A stretch of 64,000 nt of DNA from Candidatus Omnitrophota bacterium (GTDB taxonomy: Bacteria; Omnitrophota; Gorgyraeia; Zapsychrales; JANLHA01). The stretch is taken from NCBI GenBank assembly GCA_963662715.1, contig OY759724.1:2074662-2138661 (forward strand). The letters run 5' to 3'. Every line of letters starts with the position of its first letter. Positions within the stretch are counted from its first letter, which is position 1. A program made the translations under genes and the position numbers. Shown here in pieces: positions 30,328 through 50,018 of this stretch. Below the pieces are notes generated by a model that was not told the DNA's origin, did not search any database, and saw nothing but the letters and a program-made list of their open reading frames with translations.

Positions 30328-31263
30328 ATGTTGCTGGAGTTGCAGGGGATACAAAAATATTTCCCGGTCAAACACAGCGTTTCTTGCGGGGCAAGAGAAG
30401 ACAGCTCTCCCGGAAATCTTGGCGCTTCTGTCGAACAGGCGGTCTCCGCCCTTGCCTGGTGGCAAAAGAGTTATGTCCGGGCGGTCGATGGAGTTGATTT
30501 AAGTATTGAGCAGGGGGAAGATCTGGGCTTGGTCGGAGAATCCGGTTCCGGAAAAACAACGTTAGGACGGCTTATTGTCAGGCTGTATTCTTTAGACAAG
30601 GGACGAATCTTCCTGGAGGGGAAAGACATTTCTTCTTCCCGGTCAGCTGTCCAGTTATTAAGGAAAAAAGTCCAAATGGTCTTCCAGGACCCTTATAGCA
30701 GTTTGAATCCCCGTTTCCCGGTAAGGAAAATTTTAAAGGAAGCCTTTCATCAATTGCGCCCTTTCCCGGACAGAAATTATCAAGAGCTTAAAATGATTGA
30801 AATGATGAAAGCGGTGGGGTTGGAAGGGGAAAATCTTAACCGGTTCCCTCATGAATTTAGCGGCGGGGAGAGGCAGCGTATCGCTATTGCACGGGCGCTG
30901 CTGATGAACCCGAAGCTTCTCATTTTAGACGAAGCGGTTTCTTCTTTGGATGTGCTCGTCCAGCAGCAGATCATTTCTTTGTTGAAAGAACTGCAGAAAA
31001 AGTTTAATGTCACGTATTTTTTTATTACGCATAATCTTCGAGTGGTCAAAAAATTGTGCAGACGTATTGCCGTTATGTATAAGGGGAAAATTGTTGAGCT
31101 GGGATATGCGGAAGACATTTTTGAGAATCCGCAACATGTTTATACAAAAGAATTATTGTCCGCTGCGGTGAATTATCAGGCATCGCAAAGTGATTTGGAA
31201 ATAGAGTTTGATAAAAGTTCCCGTTTGGTTGACTTGGGGAACGGACATTTTGTAATAAAGTGA
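30328..31263 (+). CDS. ABC transporter ATP-binding protein (OppF/DppF-like), with an N-terminal insertion
   Basis: Walker A GESGSGKTT, signature FSGGERQR, Walker B LILDEAVSSLD. Confidence 0.9.
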   Translation: MLLELQGIQKYFPVKHSVSCGAREDSSPGNLGASVEQAVSALAWWQKSYVRAVDGVDLSIEQGEDLGLVGESGSGKTTLGRLIVRLYSLDKGRIFLEGKDISSSRSAVQLLRKKVQMVFQDPYSSLNPRFPVRKILKEAFHQLRPFPDRNYQELKMIEMMKAVGLEGENLNRFPHEFSGGERQRIAIARALLMNPKLLILDEAVSSLDVLVQQQIISLLKELQKKFNVTYFFITHNLRVVKKLCRRIAVMYKGKIVELGYAEDIFENPQHVYTKELLSAAVNYQASQSDLEIEFDKSSRLVDLGNGHFVIK

Positions 31264-35054: not shown

Positions 35055-36266
35055 ATGATTGTGCAGCCAAAAATAAGAGGGTTTATTTGTACGACAGCCC
35101 ATCCTGCGGGCTGTGCTAAAAATGTCCAGGACCAGATTGACTATGTGAAAGAGCAGGGGCTTATTCAAGACGGCCCCGAAAGGGTTCTTGTGGTCGGAGC
35201 TTCAACAGGCTACGGCCTGGCGAGCCGTATCACGGTCGCTTTCGGATGCCGGGCTAAGACCATGGGTGTCTTTTATGAAAAAGCAGCGGAGGGGCGGCGC
35301 ACGGCGACGGCCGGGTGGTATAACTCGATTGCTTTTGACCAGGCCGCCATAAATGAAGGGCTTTACGCGAGAAGCTTTAACGGCGATGCGTTTAGCGACG
35401 AGATGAAGGATCGGGTCGTCTCGACGATCCGGGAGGACTGGGGAGGCGTTGATTTGCTGATCTACAGCTTGGCATCTCCCAGGCGTTTGCATCCGAAAAC
35501 AGGTCAATTGTCCAAATCCTCGTTGAAGCCAAGAGGCGCTCCCTATACGAACAAATCCATAGATTTTTCCATCAACAAAATTGTGAATGTGACCCTGCCT
35601 TCAGCCACAGAAGAAGATGTGCAGCAGACGATCGATGTTATGGGCGGTGAGGACTGGGACATGTGGGTGGCCGCATTAAAGCAGGCTAATCTGCTGTCTG
35701 AAAAATTTGTCACGGCTGCTTATTCGTATGTCGGCCCGGATGTGACGATGCCGGTTTATCGCAATGGAACGATTGGGGCGGCTAAAGACCATTTGGAAGA
35801 AACAGCCCGCAAAATGGACGAATGGCTTAGACAAAAAGGCGGCCGGGCTTTCGTGTCCGTGAACAAGGCTTTGATCACTCAATCCAGTTCGGCGATCCCT
35901 TTCATCCCGCTTTATTTCATTATTTTGATGAAAGTTATGAAGCAAAAAGGCGTTCATGAGGACTGTATTCATCAGATGGTCAGACTTTTTCATGAGAGGC
36001 TTTATGCCGGGGGAGAGATCCCGGTTGATGAACTTGGCCGCGTACGAGTGGATGATTGGGAGATGCGTCCGGATATCCAGAGTGAGGTCCGAGAGTTATG
36101 GGAAAAAGTATCTAACGAGAATGTTGAGCAGTTGGCTGATGTCCGGGGATATCATGAAGATTTCCTGAAGTTGTTCGGCTTTGGGTTGTCTGGCGTAGAT
36201 TATGAAGCTGATGTCGATATCGATTTAAAGTTCCCCGATTACGATTCTGTTATTATGAAAACATGA
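35055..36266 (+). CDS. fabV: Enoyl-[ACP]/trans-2-enoyl-CoA reductase, FabV family
   Basis: IRGFICTTAHPAGC, VLVVGASTGYGLASRI and YSLASP motifs, with a length of about 400 aa. Confidence 0.85.
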   Translation: MIVQPKIRGFICTTAHPAGCAKNVQDQIDYVKEQGLIQDGPERVLVVGASTGYGLASRITVAFGCRAKTMGVFYEKAAEGRRTATAGWYNSIAFDQAAINEGLYARSFNGDAFSDEMKDRVVSTIREDWGGVDLLIYSLASPRRLHPKTGQLSKSSLKPRGAPYTNKSIDFSINKIVNVTLPSATEEDVQQTIDVMGGEDWDMWVAALKQANLLSEKFVTAAYSYVGPDVTMPVYRNGTIGAAKDHLEETARKMDEWLRQKGGRAFVSVNKALITQSSSAIPFIPLYFIILMKVMKQKGVHEDCIHQMVRLFHERLYAGGEIPVDELGRVRVDDWEMRPDIQSEVRELWEKVSNENVEQLADVRGYHEDFLKLFGFGLSGVDYEADVDIDLKFPDYDSVIMKT

Positions 36267-36419
36267 CCTTTTCTGCCTCTTTCGGCATTCTTGATCAGAG
36301 GTGTCCGTTTTTGTCCGCAGTGTTTGAGGATGATTTGCAGTTAGTGGTGATCAGATGCATTTTATGCTGTTTCCTGCCAGAGGTTGTTTGTCTTCTTATT
36401 TAAAAAGTTTAATAAAAGA

Positions 36420-36448
36420 TTGACAAGGGTCTTTTGATCTAATACATT
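36420..36448 (+). promoter_or_regulatory. Candidate sigma-70-type promoter for the HTH-ACP(-smc) unit
   Basis: TTGACA (36420-36425), a 17-nt spacer, then TACATT (36443-36448). Confidence 0.4.
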
Positions 36449-36475
36449 GAAAATAAATAATTAAAATTAGTACTA

Positions 36476-36730
36476 ATGGAAAAAGATATGAACCAGAATC
36501 AGTTGATGACAATTGACGAAGTTGCTCAATATCTAAGGGTAAAAAAACGAACTGTTTATGACTGGCTTAAAAAAGATAAGATCCCGGCCATCAAGACCGT
36601 TGGGCAATGGCGGTTTAAGAAAGAAACGATTGATTCATGGCTTGAGGCTCAGCAGAGATTTATCGATCAGATTCGCATGGAAAAAGAGTCAAAGGATAAG
36701 GGAGGAACAAATGATGGCAGCACGAGGTGA
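36476..36730 (+). CDS. Small excisionase/MerR-type helix-turn-helix DNA-binding protein (HTH_17-like)
   Basis: MTIDEVAQYLRVKKRTVYDWLKKDKIPAIKTVGQWRFKKETIDSWL matches the excisionase-family HTH pattern. The start could be ATG 36476, 36488 or 36506. Confidence 0.75.
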   Translation: MEKDMNQNQLMTIDEVAQYLRVKKRTVYDWLKKDKIPAIKTVGQWRFKKETIDSWLEAQQRFIDQIRMEKESKDKGGTNDGSTR

Positions 36731-36974
36731 CTCTAATATTGAGAAAGACATTCGGATGCTTGTTGCAGACATCTTGGAGACTGAACCCGAAGAGATAGAT
36801 GGTGAGGCAAAGTTTGTTCAGGATTTAGGTATGGACTCTATGATGGCTTTGGAGATTTTAGCCGGATTAGAAAAGAAGTATCGCATCGTTATCCCGGAAG
36901 AGATGCTGGCAAAATTTGTCAATCTCAACACGACTGTGAAGATTGTAGAGGATCTTTTAAGAGAAAAGTCATAG
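36711..36974 (+). CDS. Acyl carrier protein, non-canonical (DSM phosphopantetheine site)
   Basis: FVQDLGMDSMMALEILAGLEKKY is a carrier-protein helix II motif. A strong RBS GGGAGGA lies 4-5 nt before ATG 36711, and the ATG sits 20 nt inside the end of the HTH gene. Confidence 0.8.
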   Translation: MMAARGDSNIEKDIRMLVADILETEPEEIDGEAKFVQDLGMDSMMALEILAGLEKKYRIVIPEEMLAKFVNLNTTVKIVEDLLREKS

Positions 36975-37026: not shown

Positions 37027-40000
37027 GTGTTTTTTAAAAGATTAGAAATCTTTGGATTTAAATCTTTTGCGGATAAAACTGTGATGAATTTCGGCCCAGG
37101 CGTTACGGCGATTGTCGGGCCTAACGGTTGCGGTAAAAGCAATGTTTTTGATGCTATCCGCTGGGTGTTAGGGGAGCAGAGCGTTAAGGAACTGCGTGGC
37201 TCGGCCATGGAGGATGTCATCTTTAATGGCACGGAGAAGAAACCTTCTTTAGGTTTTGCCGAAGTGAGCCTTACTTTTTCCAATGAGTCGCGTGCTTTAC
37301 CCGTTGATTATAACGAAGTAACCGTAACGAGACGCCTGTTCCGTTCGGGGGAAAGTGAGTATCTGCTGAATAAGACGACAGTCCGGTTGAAAGATATCGC
37401 TGAGCTTTTTATGGGGACGGGTATTGGCGCAGAAGCCTATTCTCTTGTTCAGCAGGGAAAAGTTGATTTGGTCGTCAGCGCTAAACCGGAAGACCGGAGA
37501 ATTATTCTGGATGAGGCTTCGGGGATAACAAAGTACAAATCGAAGCGGAAAGAAGCTTTGAATAAACTGCGAGACACAGAGAACAACCTGCTGCGGATTA
37601 ATGATATTATCGTTGAAGTCAAAAGACAGATCGCTTCGCTGGAAAGACAGGCGAATAAAGCCCGGCGTTATAGAGAAGAATTTGAGAAGTTGAAGGACCT
37701 GGAAGTCCAATACGCGGGGATGGAACTCAATGAGTTTTCCGAGCAAAGCCAGCGTCTCCGGCAGCATATTGCGGAAATGAAAGACCGGGAGAACCAGGAA
37801 ATCGAAGCCCTGAAAGAGCTTAATGAACTTTTAGGCCATGAAACGAGTTTTATGGAGGAGCTGGACGAAAAGATCAGCGAAATGACCGGGCAGGCGATAA
37901 AAGTGGAAGGTCAGGTTGACCTCCATCAGAGGCAAATTGAATTTAACGAAGAAAGAATTGAAAATGCCTTGTCTCAACAAAAGCGAATTGCTGAACATAA
38001 GGGGCAGATCCGGGAACGGTGCCGGCTGCAGGAAGAAAAGCTGGAAGAACTCCGTGTCTCATTGTCTCAATCGGAACACGTGATTGAAGGGAAGACCGGG
38101 CAGCTTGAAGAGAAAAGGAGTTCTCTTAACACGATCGTTGAAGGAATTGCCACGGCGCGTTTGAATATCCGGGATGAGGAGGAAAAAATATTAACGATTA
38201 CCGCTAATCAGGTTCAGGTGCGCAACAGGTTGACGGAGGTCATGAAAGAGGTCCAGGGCAGTTTGGCCAGAAAGAGACGGCTGGAAATAGAGAATGTCAA
38301 AGTGGCCCAGGAAAAAGAAGTGGTCGATCATAGATATGCCGATATCTGCCAGAAAACCCAAACAGCGAAACAGACCATTCAGGATCTGCGGGGCCAGAGG
38401 GAAACCCAGGTCACTCAATTGAAGGCTCTGCAGAGAGAGATGGATGCCCTAAAACAATGCATTGACGATCTTGAAAAAAAGAAACTGTTTTTAAAGTCAC
38501 AAAAAGAATTTATTGAGAAATTGCGTGTCCAATATCAAGATATCCCCGATCCGATTGTCTCCGGCCGTTTTGTGACGACGACATCCCCTTCGCAACATCA
38601 TACCGGTATTATCGGTAAGGTCCGGGAGGTTGTTCCTCTTCAGGGGGAGCGTTTGGCCCAGATGCAGGCCTACTTGGGAGAGCAGGGGGATCAGTGTTTT
38701 GAGATCATCTGTGAAACAAAGTTTATTGAGTTAGACCCGCAACATATCTCGGTGAAGATCGATGAGTTGAGCCAGGACATTTCGGACCGTATGGTAACGA
38801 AGAGCCACTTGGAGAATGATATCAGGGGTTTGTCGGATCTGGTGGAACAACTTGAAGAAAAAATCCAGGAACAGGAGAAAGTCCTTTCCATTTTTGAGGC
38901 CCAAAAGGATGATGTGATCAAGGAAACGGACAAATTGAACGATGAATTGGATCTTGTGAAATTGGAGCTGGAAGAAGTCACGGGGATGTTGTCCTCTTTA
39001 AAGAAATCCGAGGAAGAATTAACCATTAATCTGGATTCCTTGTCTCAAGAGCTGGCTTTTTGTCAGGTCCGGATTCAGGAAGGGCAGAAACTGGTTGCTG
39101 ACAATTCCCAGCAGAGAGAAGAAACAACCATCCTGATTGCTCAGATAGAGTCGGAAATCCGTTCGGAACAGGAAAAAAGAAACAGCTATAGTGAGAATTT
39201 AAAGCTTTATCAGGAAACCTTGGAAGGCAGCATCAAGGAAATAGAACAGCTGGATCAAGAGGAGGCTGAAGAGCAGTTGAAACACCAGCAGTTCGAGCAG
39301 GAAATTGTGTCCTTGCTGGCGAAGATAGAAGATGTTAAAAAACAGAAAAGCTCTTTGCAGAACGTGTTGAGAGATTATGAGAAGCAAAAGGATGAGGTTG
39401 TCAGCCGCATCAACAGTGTGCGGGCGAACATCTCTTCCAACAACTCAGATCTGGAGGAAATCAGAAGTCTTGTCCACCAGGACCAGTTTAATGATCAGGA
39501 AATTTCGTTTCACATCAAAGAGATCAAAGACCGTCTGCAGCAGGCCTACCGGATCGATTTTGACGAGTATGTCCGTCAGAGGAACGAACAGGTCCCGGCC
39601 GGGGCCGAGGTTCCTGAGGCGTCTGCTCCGAAGGAGCTTCCCGATATTGATGAGTTGAAAGAAACGATCAACCGCCTGCGCAAGCGTTGCGATGCCTTTG
39701 GGTCCGTAAACTTAGTGGCCATTGAAGAGTTTGAGGAGCTAAAGCAGCGTTTTGAATTCCTGACCAGTCAGCAGAGCGATTTGATTTCAGCGAAACATTC
39801 CTGCAGCAAACGATCGTCAAGATTAACCGCCAAACACGGCAAATGTTTATGGATACGTTTACCAAGGTGAGTGAAGAGTTCCGTATCTATTTCAGAATGC
39901 TTTTCGGCGGAGGAGAAGCCCAGCTCGTTTTGATGGATCCCGACAATGTCCTTGAGACAGGGATTGAAATTATCGCGAGGCCTCCTGGCAAAAAACTGCA

Positions 40001-40340
40001 GAATATCAGCCTGCTTTCCGGAGGGGAAAAGACCCTGACGGCGATCGCTCTCATTTTCGGCGTTTTCAAGGTGAATCCCAGCCCGTTTTGTGTCCTCGAT
40101 GAAATTGACGCTGCCCTGGATGAATCAAACGTGGGACGGTTCAGTTATCTTCTTAAGGACTTTGCCGAAATTGCCCAGTTTATTGTTATAACTCATAACA
40201 AGAAGACCATCGCTTCTGCAAAAGTCATGTACGGGATTACGATGCAGGAGACAGGGGTCTCTAAAATCGTGTCGGTGAAGTTCGCGGAGAAAGACGAGAC
40301 AAAGACGGAGAATCTTCAGGCCGTTACCGCCAGTGTATGA
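37027..40340 (+). pseudogene. smc: Chromosome segregation protein SMC, interrupted by a single-nucleotide frameshift near 39793-39800 (true pseudogene or sequence error)
   Basis: N-terminal head FGFKSFADKT...IVGPNGCGKSN. C-terminal head [14 protein letters not shown]...[13 protein letters not shown] is in a different frame (ORFs 37027-39870 and 39843-40340). The second frame is open from 39756 and reads ...[23 protein letters not shown] start preceded by GAGAGGAG. Confidence 0.85.
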
Positions 40341-40368: not shown

Positions 40369-41567
40369 TTAATATTTTTCTTCTCTAAAATGATTGGCAA
40401 AGCAGGTTTTGTTTTTGCCGCTGAATTTTGCGATATACATGGCTTTATCCGCCATGGCGATTAAATCTTCTTTGTTCATCGCGTCATCAGGGTAATTGGC
40501 CAGCCCAAGGCTGATTGTCATGTGAAGAGACTGGCCTTCCGAAGGCTCGGGAAAAGAATATTCCTCAATACGCTTGCGTAATCTCTCGGCGATATCCCAT
40601 CCTTGATCGAGATTGGCTCCCGATAAGATAATCGCAAATTCCTCCCCTCCGTAACGGCAGACAAAGTCAATATCCCGGGAGGAGTTGGTGAGTATCTGGG
40701 CCATGTTTTTCAGGAGCTGGTCTCCATGCTGATGCCCGTAGGTGTCGTTGATTTTTTTAAAGTCGTCAATATCAATCATAACCAGGCTTAACGGCTGTTT
40801 CAGCAGGATAGCCTGGTTAAGTTCTTCCGTCAGTTTTTCTTGAAAGAAACGGTGATTCCAGAGACCGGTGATTGGGTCGGTCAGGCTTTGCAGAACAACC
40901 ATTTCGTATAAATGGGAGTTTTCGATGGCAAGCCCGGCTTGGTTGGCCAGCATGGTAAAAATTTTTATGTCATCCTGACTGATAGGCTTTTGGGTGTAAA
41001 TATTGTCGGCGATAATGAGTCCGTTAACCTCGTCTTTGGCTTTAAGGGGCATGATGAGCAGTTCATTCGTGTAGAATATTTTTAGAAGAGGATCATCTTT
41101 ATATTCCGATATGGCATAAGGAAGCAGATGCCAGGGGGTCCCTCTGAAGTAGGCTTGGGAAAGGAGAAAAGGGCTGACGGGGTCCAGAGGAAAGCGAAGG
41201 TCTTTCACCGATTTAAAAAGGCTTGCCTGGTCGATAGTGTTGTAAACTTTATCGGCTTGAATGAGGTCGTTAAGATCCTGGTTGCAGTTTTCGATGTATT
41301 CCAGACTTTATTGGCATGTTCTCCCGATTCCGGGCCTATGGCCATTTTGCATTCCAGGACTTTTTTCTGTGAGTTGACAAGAAAGAGAATCGCCCGGTTG
41401 TACCCGAGCCCGGTGTGGGAGGTGACTCCTGTCAGGATAATATAGAGGATATGATTCAGTTCAAGGGTCGTCCTCATGGCGCAGCTTACTTCGTAGAGGA
41501 CGTTGAGCTCCCGGTTCGCTTGTTTGATGCGGTTTTCGGTCATGTCTCTTGTTGTGATTTCAGTCAT
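40369..41567 (-). pseudogene. GAF-domain diguanylate cyclase (GGDEF), interrupted by a frameshift inside the GAF domain (true pseudogene or sequence error)
   Basis: The downstream ORF has the GGDEF domain (DPITGLWNHRFF, IDIDDFKKINDTYGH, RYGGEEFAI) and the C-terminal half of a GAF domain. The upstream ORF 41205-41567 has the N-terminal GAF half. The alternative frame is open from about 41310 and reads SLEYIENCNQDLNDLIQADKVYNTIDQASLFKSVKDLRF. Confidence 0.8.
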
Positions 41568-48048: not shown

Positions 48049-48122
48049 GGGCCCATAGCTCAGTCGGTCAGAGCAGTTGACTCATAATCAATTGGTCCCA
48101 GGTTCGAGTCCTGGTGGGCCCA
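48049..48122 (+). tRNA. tRNA with CAT anticodon (elongator Met, or Ile2 read via lysidine)
   Basis: Cloverleaf read by eye: acceptor GGGCCCA/TGGGCCC, D-arm GCTC...GAGC, anticodon stem GTTGA/TCAAT with loop CTCATAA, T-arm CCAGG TTCGAGT CCTGG. No encoded CCA. Confidence 0.85.
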
Positions 48123-48177
48123 GATAATACTGATATGTTTTGTCGCAAAGCAGGTTGTGCTTCCTTACGAATAAAAT

Positions 48178-48254
48178 GGGCGCATAGCTCAGCCGGTTAG
48201 AGTGCTGCCCTCACATGGCAGAGGTCGAAGGTTCGAGTCCTTCTGTGCCCACCA
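48178..48254 (+). tRNA. tRNA-Val (CAC anticodon), CCA encoded
   Basis: Acceptor GGGCGCA/TGTGCCC (one G-T pair), anticodon stem CTGCC/GGCAG with loop CTCACAT, T-arm GAAGG TTCGAGT CCTTC, 3' ACCA. Confidence 0.85.
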
Positions 48255-49090: not shown

Positions 49091-49546
49091 ATGAGACTGA
49101 AAATATACTCTGATGGTGCTTGTAGCGGTAATCCCGGCCCCGCAGGTATTGGTGTTGTTATTCACAAAGACGGGGAAGTTGTTAAAGAGATTTCGAAGTA
49201 TATCGGAGAGGCAACGAATAATATTGCAGAGTATACGGCTGTCATTTATGCCGCTCAGGAAGCGCTGATTATGCGGGCCGATGAAGTAGCGCTTTTTACT
49301 GACAGCGAGCTTGTTTATAATCAATTGTCCGGCTATTATAAGGTTAAGGACAGCAAAATCAAGCCGCTTTTTGATCAAATTCAGCATTTAGCTGGGGGGT
49401 TCAAAAAATTTTATATCACGCATGTCCTCAGGGATAAAAACAAGGACGCTGATAAATTAGCACGTAAGGCCATTAAAGACAAGCAGGCCAAGGTGGTTGC
49501 CTCGCGGCCGGTCCAGAATCAGGTGCAGTCTGATTTATGGGCTTAA
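49091..49546 (+). CDS. rnhA: Ribonuclease HI family protein (RVT_3/type-1 RNase H fold)
   Basis: DEDD catalytic pattern: IYSDGAC, TNNIAEYTA, FTDSELV and NKDADKLA. Confidence 0.8.
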   Translation: MRLKIYSDGACSGNPGPAGIGVVIHKDGEVVKEISKYIGEATNNIAEYTAVIYAAQEALIMRADEVALFTDSELVYNQLSGYYKVKDSKIKPLFDQIQHLAGGFKKFYITHVLRDKNKDADKLARKAIKDKQAKVVASRPVQNQVQSDLWA

Positions 49547-49897
49547 ACAAACCGCGGGGAGGAAAGTCCGGGCTCCAAAGGATATTGTATCCTGGTAACG
49601 CAGGACATCCTGATTTCCGTATCAGGGTAGGATTAGAGCTACAGTGACGATACTCGATCCTTGTTAACAGGGGTCGAGGGTGAAACGAGCAATCTCTACA
49701 AGGAGCAAGGCCAAATAGGGAGAGACACGGTGATAACACCGGGGCGAAGTGATCCGCTTCGCGAAAAGAGCGCAGCTGTTTTCGGTATCTCCGGGTAGGC
49801 TGCAAGAGTCCTTAACGTGAGTTGAGGAGTCAGTGCAATAACCATCCATCTCGCCTGTAAAAAATCGAGATGCACAAAACCCGGCTTATTGGTCTGC
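49525..49897 (+). ncRNA. rnpB: RNase P RNA, bacterial type A
   Basis: Universally conserved P4 strands GAGGAAAGTCCGGGCTCC (49558-49575) and CACAAAACCCGGCTTA (49873-49888). Other matches: GGTAACGC, AGGGTGAAA, AGCAAGGCCAAATAGGG and CCGGGTAGGCTGC. Ends were inferred from pairing GCAG(T)CTGAT with ATTGG(T)CTGC and are approximate. Confidence 0.85.
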
Positions 49898-50018
49898 TTG
49901 AAATATCATTTTTGGGGAATTTTTATGAGTGTTCTGAGAGATGTCGGAATATGGCTTTTCGAAAAGAGAGCGGATTTTTTATTTGTATGAATCATGATTT
50001 AAATGAGGAGGGTTGAAT

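Follow-up and report, generated by a model that had tools for sequence, protein, structure and literature searches.

A conserved probable operon of Omnitrophota places a putative BldC-like regulator gene and an amxACP-like acyl carrier protein gene ahead of smc

A 64-kb window of an Omnitrophota genome, the whole stretch of DNA that was analyzed and the frame for the coordinates given here, contains a small gene for a helix-turn-helix (HTH) protein whose 3' end overlaps the beginning of an acyl carrier protein (ACP) gene by 20 nt. The pair lies between fabV and smc. A preliminary description of the window had suggested a small regulatory/carrier module or, alternatively, the sole ACP of the organism in an unusual coupled arrangement, and the question raised by the locus is whether HTH and ACP are a dedicated pair, have met by chance, or are neighbors in a more general arrangement, and what the overlap contributes to it. 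The locus is a conserved Omnitrophota operon whose two small genes add to kinds of protein already described, HTH to the BldC-like regulators and ACP to the carriers resembling the amxACP of anammox bacteria, and HTH and ACP are operon neighbors, not an obligate functional pair. The joint model favored here, with a probability of roughly 0.55, combines four elements: an HTH-ACP-smc operon, an HTH protein that tunes its own promoter, an ACP that acts as the carrier of a dispersed fatty acid synthesis system, and an overlap that is a by-product.

Gene order and spacing of the operon

Homologs of HTH and of ACP number in the hundreds each, and all those with a named source come from Candidatus Omnitrophota. 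Close relatives of the window, whose ACP is 81% identical, keep the order opp-TPR-glgC-fabV-HTH-ACP-smc-GGDEF-cvpA-dnaG-rpoD (TPR, tetratricopeptide repeat), with an HTH protein of 80 aa, an ACP of 87 aa, and the same 20-nt overlap. Two samples show the wider distribution. One is anchored on ACP and comprises 80 loci from a scan of GTDB species representatives, all of them Omnitrophota as judged by synteny; the other is anchored on HTH and comprises 80 loci from a metagenome scan, 2 of which are cut by contig ends, leaving 78 resolvable. Locus counts in both include related species and are not numbers of independent events. The smc gene lies directly 3' of ACP in 68 of the 80 ACP-anchored loci, and an HTH ortholog lies directly 5' of ACP in 51 of the 78 assessable ones. 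An iterated hidden Markov model search of all upstream open reading frames (ORFs) shows HTH to be absent from 18 ACP-anchored loci, with smc downstream in 17 of these 18. The order HTH-ACP(-smc) is found in 58 of the 78 HTH-anchored loci, and in the other direction, HTH stands directly before smc without ACP in 20 of 78; smc follows HTH in all 78, with or without ACP. In many related loci, fabV is found upstream of HTH/ACP.

A neighbor-joining tree of the SMC N terminus includes 70 unique loci with both genes, 14 with ACP only, and 11 with HTH only, and parsimony on this tree requires the presence of HTH to have changed at least 6 times and that of ACP at least 8 times. The assembly GCA_001805645.1 shows fabV-HTH-smc without ACP on one contig and the order ACP-KS(dead)-x-KS on another (KS, ketosynthase; dead, with a replaced catalytic triad). 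The adjacency of HTH and ACP is ancestral and common in Omnitrophota, and neither gene requires the other at this site, because ACP-smc and HTH-smc loci recur and the state changes on the SMC tree are repeated. A fortuitous juxtaposition, which the preliminary description would have accepted had relatives lacked the adjacency and a canonical acpP stood in a fab operon elsewhere, is thereby set aside, as HTH-ACP is kept across Omnitrophota. A dedicated two-gene regulatory/carrier module is not supported, in view of the 18 ACP loci without HTH, the 20 of 78 HTH loci without ACP, the repeated state changes, and the restriction of the overlap to a few clades.

Several of the loci raise a question of naming. 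Four (L006, L011, L013, and L015) and ∼25 other metagenome-assembled genomes (MAGs) in GTDB are titled "uncultured Planctomycetales/Planctomycetia bacterium" and carry glgC-fabV-HTH-ACP-smc with proteins 60 to 80% identical. These labels look wrong, because the gene block is of the Omnitrophota type.

The overlap itself is borne out by the two ORFs at 36476..36730 and 36711-36974. The HTH ORF ends with a TGA stop at 36728-36730, and an alignment with five related assemblies places the conserved start at ATG 36488 (80 aa), in agreement with the database gene call P0121; an alternative ATG lies at 36476 (84 aa). The ACP start, ATG 36711, follows the Shine-Dalgarno sequence GGGAGGA at a distance of 4 nt, and 52 nt separate the ACP stop from smc. 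The identical 20-nt overlap and the same gene lengths are found in independent short-read assemblies of the window's clade (L001-L006 and L091), and two further loci (L007/L092) also show the overlap, together with an 80-aa HTH protein.

Comparison of 96 unique HTH-ACP loci places the overlap in a range of short distances, the median spacing between HTH stop and ACP start being +16 nt. Gaps of 0 to 30 nt are found in 49 loci, gaps of 31 to 100 nt in 24, and larger gaps in 5, while 18 of the 96 show overlaps of 4 to 20 nt; one more overlap call, of 46 nt, is doubtful. Outside the window's clade, the two genes overlap by 13, 7, or 4 nt or are separated by 0 to +287 nt. A strong (A)AGGAGG sequence is located 5 to 10 nt ahead of the ACP start in nearly all of these loci, and in many of them, the HTH stop is the TAA of TAAGGAGG. 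In the window's clade, the HTH protein has ∼20 extra C-terminal residues (…RFIDQIRMEKESKDKGGTNDGSTR), whose codons run through the ACP ribosome-binding site, and the 13-nt overlap of an Aceula-like clade has the same origin in an HTH extension. Gaps between ACP and smc are mostly 15 to 75 nt, with four loci above 75 nt and a largest gap of 294 nt. The 20-nt overlap is a lineage-specific by-product that is confined to the window's clade and inherited within it, and the conserved feature is the tight operon spacing, not the overlap, which is of little consequence in itself. In the joint model, the C-terminal extension through the ACP ribosome-binding site would at most couple ACP translation to that of HTH.

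Four loci depart from the usual spacing of 0 to 30 nt with an HTH-ACP spacer of 150 to 290 nt (L128, 770-1058; L140, 5201-5404; L154; and L169). The candidates for natural HTH-ACP fusions, which are the longer ACP matches (106 to 121 aa) and a 138-aa ORF of the window (36558-36974), look like in-frame upstream extensions.

A single transcription unit is proposed because of the short gaps, the strong ACP Shine-Dalgarno sequence, the lack of a terminator-like site, and the single conserved promoter; a search of the window found no terminator-like site between HTH, ACP, and smc. One sigma-70-type promoter would drive all three genes, in an arrangement ancestral to and widespread in Omnitrophota. 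The fabV gene is probably an upstream neighbor in a separate transcription unit.

The HTH protein and its candidate operator

The HTH protein matches the Pfam family HTH_17 (PF12728) with 68 bits (cutoff of 27; E value of 8.6e-19) and the "excise" model TIGR01764 with 61.3 bits (cutoff of 28.8; 8e-17), in agreement with its earlier designation as an excisionase-type HTH. A sample of 25 sequences shows a family core of ∼56 aa (range of 55 to 62), LMTIDEVA.YLRVKKRTVYDWLKKGKIPAIKTVGQWRFKKEKID.WL, with 21 invariant positions. This core is 66 to 87% identical where SMC is only ∼45 to 55% identical, making HTH the most conserved protein of the locus. Residues ∼57 to 80 form the clade-specific C-terminal extension.

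A profile search of the PDB with HTH finds only BldC (6AMA and 6AMK; E value of 2.4e-5). The AlphaFold2 (AF2) model of HTH, with a mean predicted local distance difference test score (pLDDT) of 78.6, shows a strand, two helices, a β-hairpin wing, and a C-terminal helix, and its best Foldseek match is again BldC, with a template modeling (TM) score of 0.72 to 0.79, a root mean square deviation of 1.5 Å, and 32 to 35% identity. Further Foldseek neighbors are the DNA-binding domain of RacA and excisionases of phages and integrative and conjugative elements, including Xis and RdfS. As judged from the AF2 model and the length of the family core, HTH is a single winged HTH domain without a coiled-coil dimerization domain or an effector domain. 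The window protein scores 30.5 bits with the NCBIfam model HTH_BldC, below the cutoff of 77, and because this score falls under the subfamily cutoff, HTH is termed BldC-like and not a proven member of the BldC family, a placement that follows from sequence profiles and a predicted fold.

BldC is a 68-aa MerR-like protein without dimerization or effector domains, which forms cooperative head-to-tail multimers on direct repeats of ∼9 to 10 bp, AATTNNNN(C), and controls the segregation operon smeA-sffA (PMC5859096). HTH resembles the Streptomyces protein in its single winged HTH and its size, with a core of ∼56 to 60 aa compared to 68 aa. The candidate target of HTH, a set of AT-rich direct repeats that overlap the promoter and carry a fixed G/C step at intervals of ∼10 bp, is of the same kind as the AATTNNNN(C) repeats of BldC. 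In contrast to BldC, a lone developmental regulator, HTH heads an acp-smc operon in another phylum, its DNA binding is only predicted, and in the window's clade it carries an extra C-terminal helix or tail of ∼20 aa.

The promoter of the window is comprised of an A/T-rich UP-like tract, the −35 hexamer TTGACA (36420-36425), and a 12-mer, TCTAATACATTG (36438-36449), which contains the −10 hexamer TACATT (36443-36448). The candidate promoter named earlier at 36420-36448 is sustained by this sigma-70-type arrangement, TTGACA-17-TACATT, with 10 of 12 consensus positions, and by its conservation in relatives: a block of ∼70 nt around it is almost invariant in five related assemblies, in contrast to the remaining fabV-HTH spacer, which is not conserved. 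The window contains a single match to the pattern TTGACA-N13-15-TAATANATTG, compared to 0.01 matches expected by chance. About 100 distinct HTH loci show an A-tract, TTGACA, 12 nt, and then a 12-mer with the consensus TGTAATAAATTG, within which the −10 hexamer TAAATT lies at a 17-nt spacing from the −35 hexamer. In 1.38 Mb of Omnitrophota DNA searched on both strands, the 12-mer with at most 1 mismatch has 66 copies immediately ahead of HTH and 11 at other sites. Counted from the 12-mer, the dinucleotide TG peaks at −29, −20, −10, 0, and +10 and the trinucleotide TGT at −20, −10, 0, and +10, positions one helical turn apart. Loci without HTH keep TTGACA-N17-TAAA(T/G)T ahead of ACP and have A instead of G at position 11. 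TG at positions 0-1 of the 12-mer is found in 0 of 16 HTH-less loci and 58 of 107 HTH loci, a comparison that carries less weight for an operator than its size implies, since the HTH-less loci represent a handful of independent losses and the counts are not phylogenetically independent.

The phased TG(T) repeats and their co-occurrence with the HTH gene suggest autoregulation by HTH, which is proposed because the repeats flank the −10 hexamer and accompany the gene, as expected of a BldC-type autoregulator. HTH would bind 10-bp-phased direct repeats of the TG(T)AA type flanking its own −10 hexamer and would in this way act as an autoregulator of the operon or determine its level; the regulatory role is read from the fold and the repeats.

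Two other explanations of these elements were tried and rejected. The 12-mer is not a general Omnitrophota promoter consensus, as the window contains no more copies of it than chance predicts when up to 2 mismatches are allowed (9 occurrences compared to 8.5 expected) and it is nearly confined to the HTH promoter in the 1.38 Mb. The conserved TG is not an extended −10 element, as it sits at −17/−16 from the TAAATT hexamer and not at −15/−14. A further copy of the 12-mer with 1 mismatch is held by TTGACT-N16-TGTAATAAAGTG at 31229-31262, upstream of the TPR gene (31390) and with another −35 spacing; it could be a second HTH target or a coincidence.

The carrier protein, its partners, and the competing explanations

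The ACP matches the PP-binding family PF00550 with 48 bits (cutoff of 20.8; 1.5e-12). It reaches 49.5 bits with the acpP equivalog model TIGR00517, compared to a cutoff of 70.45, and stays under the cutoffs of NF002147-51 and of all other NCBIfam acpP models. The ACP is thus non-canonical, as had been noted from its DLGMDSMMALE motif. This motif is invariant across the family, including D42-S43, and Ser43 is the predicted phosphopantetheine attachment site; the family conservation reads FV(K/Q)DLGMDSMMALEILAG(I/L)EKKY.I.IPE. In a PDB search with the family profile, the amxACPs (7QV0, 7AUF/7AX5, and 9S5I) reach 71 to 74 bits, compared to 53 for the ACP of Helicobacter pylori and 45 for Escherichia coli AcpP; with the single sequence, the margin of the amxACPs is small (55 versus 50 bits). 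The AF2 model (pLDDT of 84) is a four-helix bundle for which Foldseek ranks 7QV0_D and 7AUF first; identity with amxACP is 41% and the TM score is 0.83 to 0.87, with a small structural margin over ordinary ACPs.

The amxACP protein is the carrier of the anammox "Cluster I" (Kuste3603 and Scabro02231), where its gene accompanies those of amxFabZ and a KS/dead-KS heterodimer, enzymes that use it selectively (PMC10139942; bioRxiv 10.64898/2026.05.19.726425). A long 3-10 helix is reported to be unique to amxACP (bioRxiv 10.64898/2026.05.19.726425). The Omnitrophota ACP and amxACP have the helix II-III signature DS(L/M)(L/M)ALEILA.(I/L)EKK(F/Y)..IPEE.L in common, and some Omnitrophota ACPs adjoin a FabZ/FabA-like dehydratase (DH) and a KS/dead-KS pair, comparable to amxFabZ and amxFabF2/amxFabFmut. 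The differences are that the Omnitrophota ACP lacks the two-residue insertion of amxACP alignments, that the ACP of the window's lineage is split from these enzymes and set before smc, and that the Omnitrophota clusters show a FabG-type ketoreductase (KR), a glucose-methanol-choline (GMC) oxidoreductase, and a nitroreductase, with no phytoene-dehydrogenase or B12-radical-SAM genes seen in them. To our knowledge, Omnitrophota are not known as ladderane makers.

Linkage of acpA, rnc, and smc is known from Bacillus subtilis. Compared with canonical AcpP and the B. subtilis operon fapR-plsX-fabD-fabG-acpA-rnc-smc, the Omnitrophota locus likewise has a regulator gene at the head of the operon and, a short distance ahead of smc, an ACP gene, whose product is a four-helix carrier containing a DS motif. 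After helix II, this carrier has a basic EKKY where AcpP has an acidic EEEF, and it misses all acpP cutoffs; the locus contains no rnc, fabD, fabG, or plsX, and the 56- to 80-aa winged HTH protein has no malonyl-CoA-binding domain and so is not FapR. FabV directly upstream is confirmed by the NCBIfam model NF043048 at 605 bits. The statement that no other fab gene is present likewise stands: tblastn searches with E. coli PlsX, FabH, FabD, FabG, and FabF and with the Omnitrophota KS, KR, and DH give no match in the 64-kb window.

The likely partners of the carrier are encoded elsewhere. In the most distant members of the ACP family (L069 and L077-L084), ACP is not beside smc but lies in clusters such as HTH_17-KS-KR-ACP-DH(FabA-like)-KS. 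Each cluster has one KS with Cys-His-His and another with Phe, then Asn/Ser/Thr/Gly, and then Glu/Asp. Among the best 120 homologs of the dead KS, Phe is first and Glu third in all, and the second residue varies (116 Asn, 3 Asp, and 1 Ser). A dead KS (P0296) is encoded on the window's own contig of 3,360,633 bp, outside the window. In an assembly with the order fabV-HTH-ACP-smc (L020), a second locus (L173) contains ribE-KS(dead)-KR-DH(ApeP/FabA-like)-acylphosphatase…ligA without ACP or a second KS, and the same ribE…ligA cluster, again without ACP or a second KS, is found (L176) on the 1.17-Mb contig that carries HTH-ACP-smc (L120). The simplest reading of these gene orders is that one family ACP gene has moved between enzyme cluster and smc operon and would serve KS/dead-KS, KR, DH, and FabV in trans, because the KS(dead)-KR-DH clusters of HTH-ACP-smc genomes hold no ACP. 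The partner genes are dispersed beside the rib operon and ligA in many genomes, a gene context that argues for a core lipid function and not a facultative secondary-metabolite cluster. In the joint model, the ACP would thus supply a dispersed type II fatty acid/polyketide-like machinery, formed by FabV next door and, from other parts of the genome, by a pair of one inactive and one active KS together with a FabG-type KR and an ApeP/FabA-type DH, a biochemical role proposed from homology and gene context.

The set of KS/dead-KS, KR, and DH in Omnitrophota parallels amxFabF2/amxFabFmut-amxFabZ-amxACP of the anammox Cluster I, currently described as unique to ladderane producers. Clusters annotated as "ladderane" by antiSMASH are already known from Omnitrophota MAGs, for which fatty acid synthesis was suggested (PMC9902471), and ladderane-type clusters have been reported in non-anammox phyla (PMC9902471; Rattray 2009, PMC2649909). 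The antiSMASH clusters contain the same kinds of KS, dead KS, DH, and ACP; there, these genes are clustered, whereas here the ACP gene has left the cluster and follows a BldC-like gene in the smc operon. No report describing the latter arrangement was found, while ladderane-type clusters in Omnitrophota are not new. Three more genes follow on the 3' side of the KS-KR-ACP-DH-KS cluster (L082, 7916-10882; L084, 7886-8965). One product, of 359 to 364 aa, weakly matches PP-loop ATPases, and the others are an FAD oxidoreductase of the GMC type and a nitroreductase; they may be tailoring enzymes for some lipid.

Several points count against the joint model. Only 30 to 40% of loci have TG(T) repeats beyond the 12-mer, and the 12-mer of the window's clade (TCTAATACATTG) is degenerate, so that the proposed operator is weakest exactly there; the function of the 12-mer might also be that of an unusual promoter element and not of an operator. 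The proposed lipid-synthesis role of the ACP comes from homology and gene context. The HTH identity of ∼75%, compared to ∼50% for SMC, exceeds that of a usual plain autoregulator and hints at a broader role. In an unlikely alternative, HTH is a factor of chromosome organization that acts with SMC, nucleoid associated or SMC loading, and ACP is a passenger or a cofactor comparable to AcpP for MukB. In its favor, acpA, rnc, and smc are linked in B. subtilis as well, smc follows HTH in every resolvable HTH-anchored locus, HTH is the most conserved protein there, and the structural neighbors of HTH include RacA, which anchors chromosomes, and BldC with its target smeA-sffA (PMC5859096). In E. coli, MukB is bound by AcpP and depends on it for ATPase activity (PMC8602292), in a paper silent on acp-smc gene linkage. 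However, HTH has been lost in at least 6 lineages that retain ACP-smc and ACP has been lost from the site in at least 8, the closest relatives of the ACP are enzymatic carriers used by FabZ and KS, and HTH-SMC and ACP-SMC contacts are purely hypothetical. The adjacency to smc also has limited functional weight, because synteny is high throughout the whole block from glgC to rpoD. Another alternative, which is quite unlikely, is a sensor pair, in which a complex of HTH with (acyl-)ACP would control lipid synthesis genes, with translational coupling fixing the stoichiometry. Its model is FabT, for which acyl-ACP acts as the corepressor. Most loci have the two genes side by side, overlapping or very little apart, fabV is directly upstream, an extra protein-binding surface would fit the unusual conservation of HTH, and distant Omnitrophota KS-KR-ACP-DH-KS clusters (L077, L080, L081, L082, and L084) are headed by an HTH_17 gene with 30 to 47% identity in alignment and tblastn comparisons. 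The proteins at the heads of these clusters, however, share little with HTH beyond the generic HTH_17 consensus and may be generic relatives, not orthologs, and a core of ∼56 aa is too small for a ligand-binding domain. HTH stays before smc without ACP in 20 of 78 loci and in GCA_001805645.1, ACP stays after the loss of HTH in 18 loci, and both changes are repeated. The 12-mer, moreover, is upstream of no other gene in the 1.38 Mb, and hence no regulon is visible.

Two further explanations concern the nature of the locus itself. The match to the "excisionase family" model TIGR01764 (8e-17), the score of 70.5 bits with the antiphage_MADS1 model NF047737, and the presence of Xis and RdfS among the fold neighbors could make HTH an excisionase or recombination directionality factor, or MAD1 of a methylation-associated defense system (MADS), in a mobile or defense element beside ACP. 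Context and score effectively exclude these readings. The MADS1 score is below the cutoff of 80, HTH is vertically conserved at ∼75% identity, and no integrase, att-like repeats, adjacent tRNA, or defense genes flank HTH, which lies among housekeeping neighbors in fixed order in ∼160 loci. That the overlap is an artifact of assembly or annotation has a negligible probability: smc and the GGDEF gene are frameshifted nearby and other ORF pairs of the window overlap suspiciously, but the same overlap recurs in the independent short-read assemblies of the clade, and the database gene calls for the window's genome are 80 aa (P0121) and 87 aa (P0001).

If the joint model of an autoregulated operon with a carrier acting in trans is true, the uncultured and little-characterized Omnitrophota gain a compact regulatory unit, a BldC-type protein of 56 to 80 aa with a well-defined candidate operator before smc and a lipid carrier. 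Direct-repeat regulators of the BldC type would then extend well past the Actinobacteria, with a concrete pair of promoter and protein. An amxACP-type carrier with KS/dead-KS is here encoded by ordinary, dispersed, housekeeping-like genes in a non-anammox phylum, which bears on the assumed ladderane specificity of this set. A further-reaching proposal, for which the odds are long, sees the BldC-like protein as a phylum-wide, near-invariant factor tying membrane lipid synthesis to chromosome organization, with the ACP perhaps an SMC cofactor as AcpP is for MukB, and with an amxACP-type main fatty acid synthesis as a corollary. In that case, HTH would control, and perhaps physically join, an operon coexpressing a lipid carrier and SMC. 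The corollary would place the main fatty acid synthesis of Omnitrophota on an amxACP-type carrier and a KS/dead-KS initiator instead of canonical AcpP/FabH, and the core of the anammox "ladderane" Cluster I would be an offshoot of an ordinary lipid pathway.

Coordinates and neighboring features

Table 1. Features of the HTH-ACP-smc locus in the window, and KS pairs and partner genes in other loci
Feature	Coordinates	Strand	Basis
fabV, enoyl-ACP reductase, 403 aa	35055..36266	+	NCBIfam NF043048 EnoyACPredFabV, 605 bits (cutoff 400), and three Pfam enoyl-reductase domains
HTH-ACP-smc operon promoter	36401..36449	+	Consensus scan, conserved block, 12-mer specificity
HTH_17/BldC-like small winged-helix protein, 80 aa	36488..36730	+	Pfam HTH_17, TIGR01764, alignment of start, PDB profile and Foldseek
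ACP Shine-Dalgarno sequence GGGAGGA, within HTH 3' coding end	36700..36706	+	Read from sequence
HTH 3'/ACP 5' overlap, 20 nt	36711..36730	+	ORF coordinates
amxACP-like acyl carrier protein, 87 aa	36711..36974	+	PP-binding match, PDB profile, AF2 model
smc, third operon gene	37027..40340	+	Pfam SMC_N on both pieces
KS pairs and partner genes	L069 228-2715; L078 6289-9291; L084 3957-7882; L173 8001-10438; L176 8001-10443		

The smc gene is present in the window in two pieces, 37027-39870 (947 aa) and 39843-40340 (165 aa). Alignment of the junction to L001 (CATTC-CTGCAG versus CATTCGCTGCAG) shows the break, within 39790-39805, to be a 1-nt deletion near 39798, and SMC is intact in relatives at 1,098 aa. 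The adjoining GAF-GGDEF gene on the minus strand is likewise broken, at 41200-41210, and occupies two frames (41205-41567 and 40369-41208); it is intact in relatives at 397 aa. Both breaks probably reflect indels introduced in assembling a long single-contig genome and are not marks of pseudogenes. Same-strand ORF pairs overlapping by 40 to 90 nt are found elsewhere in the window at 15715-16911/16851-17681, 25239-25589/25513-27426, 50013-50768/50728-51255, 56017-56871/56807-57583, and 59429-60175/60091-60630, and these may be more assembly frameshifts or genuine overlaps. A class A bacterial RNase P RNA (163.7 bits) is encoded at 49480-49904, and genes for tRNA-Met and tRNA-Val are located within 48049-48254; these are housekeeping features unrelated to the operon.

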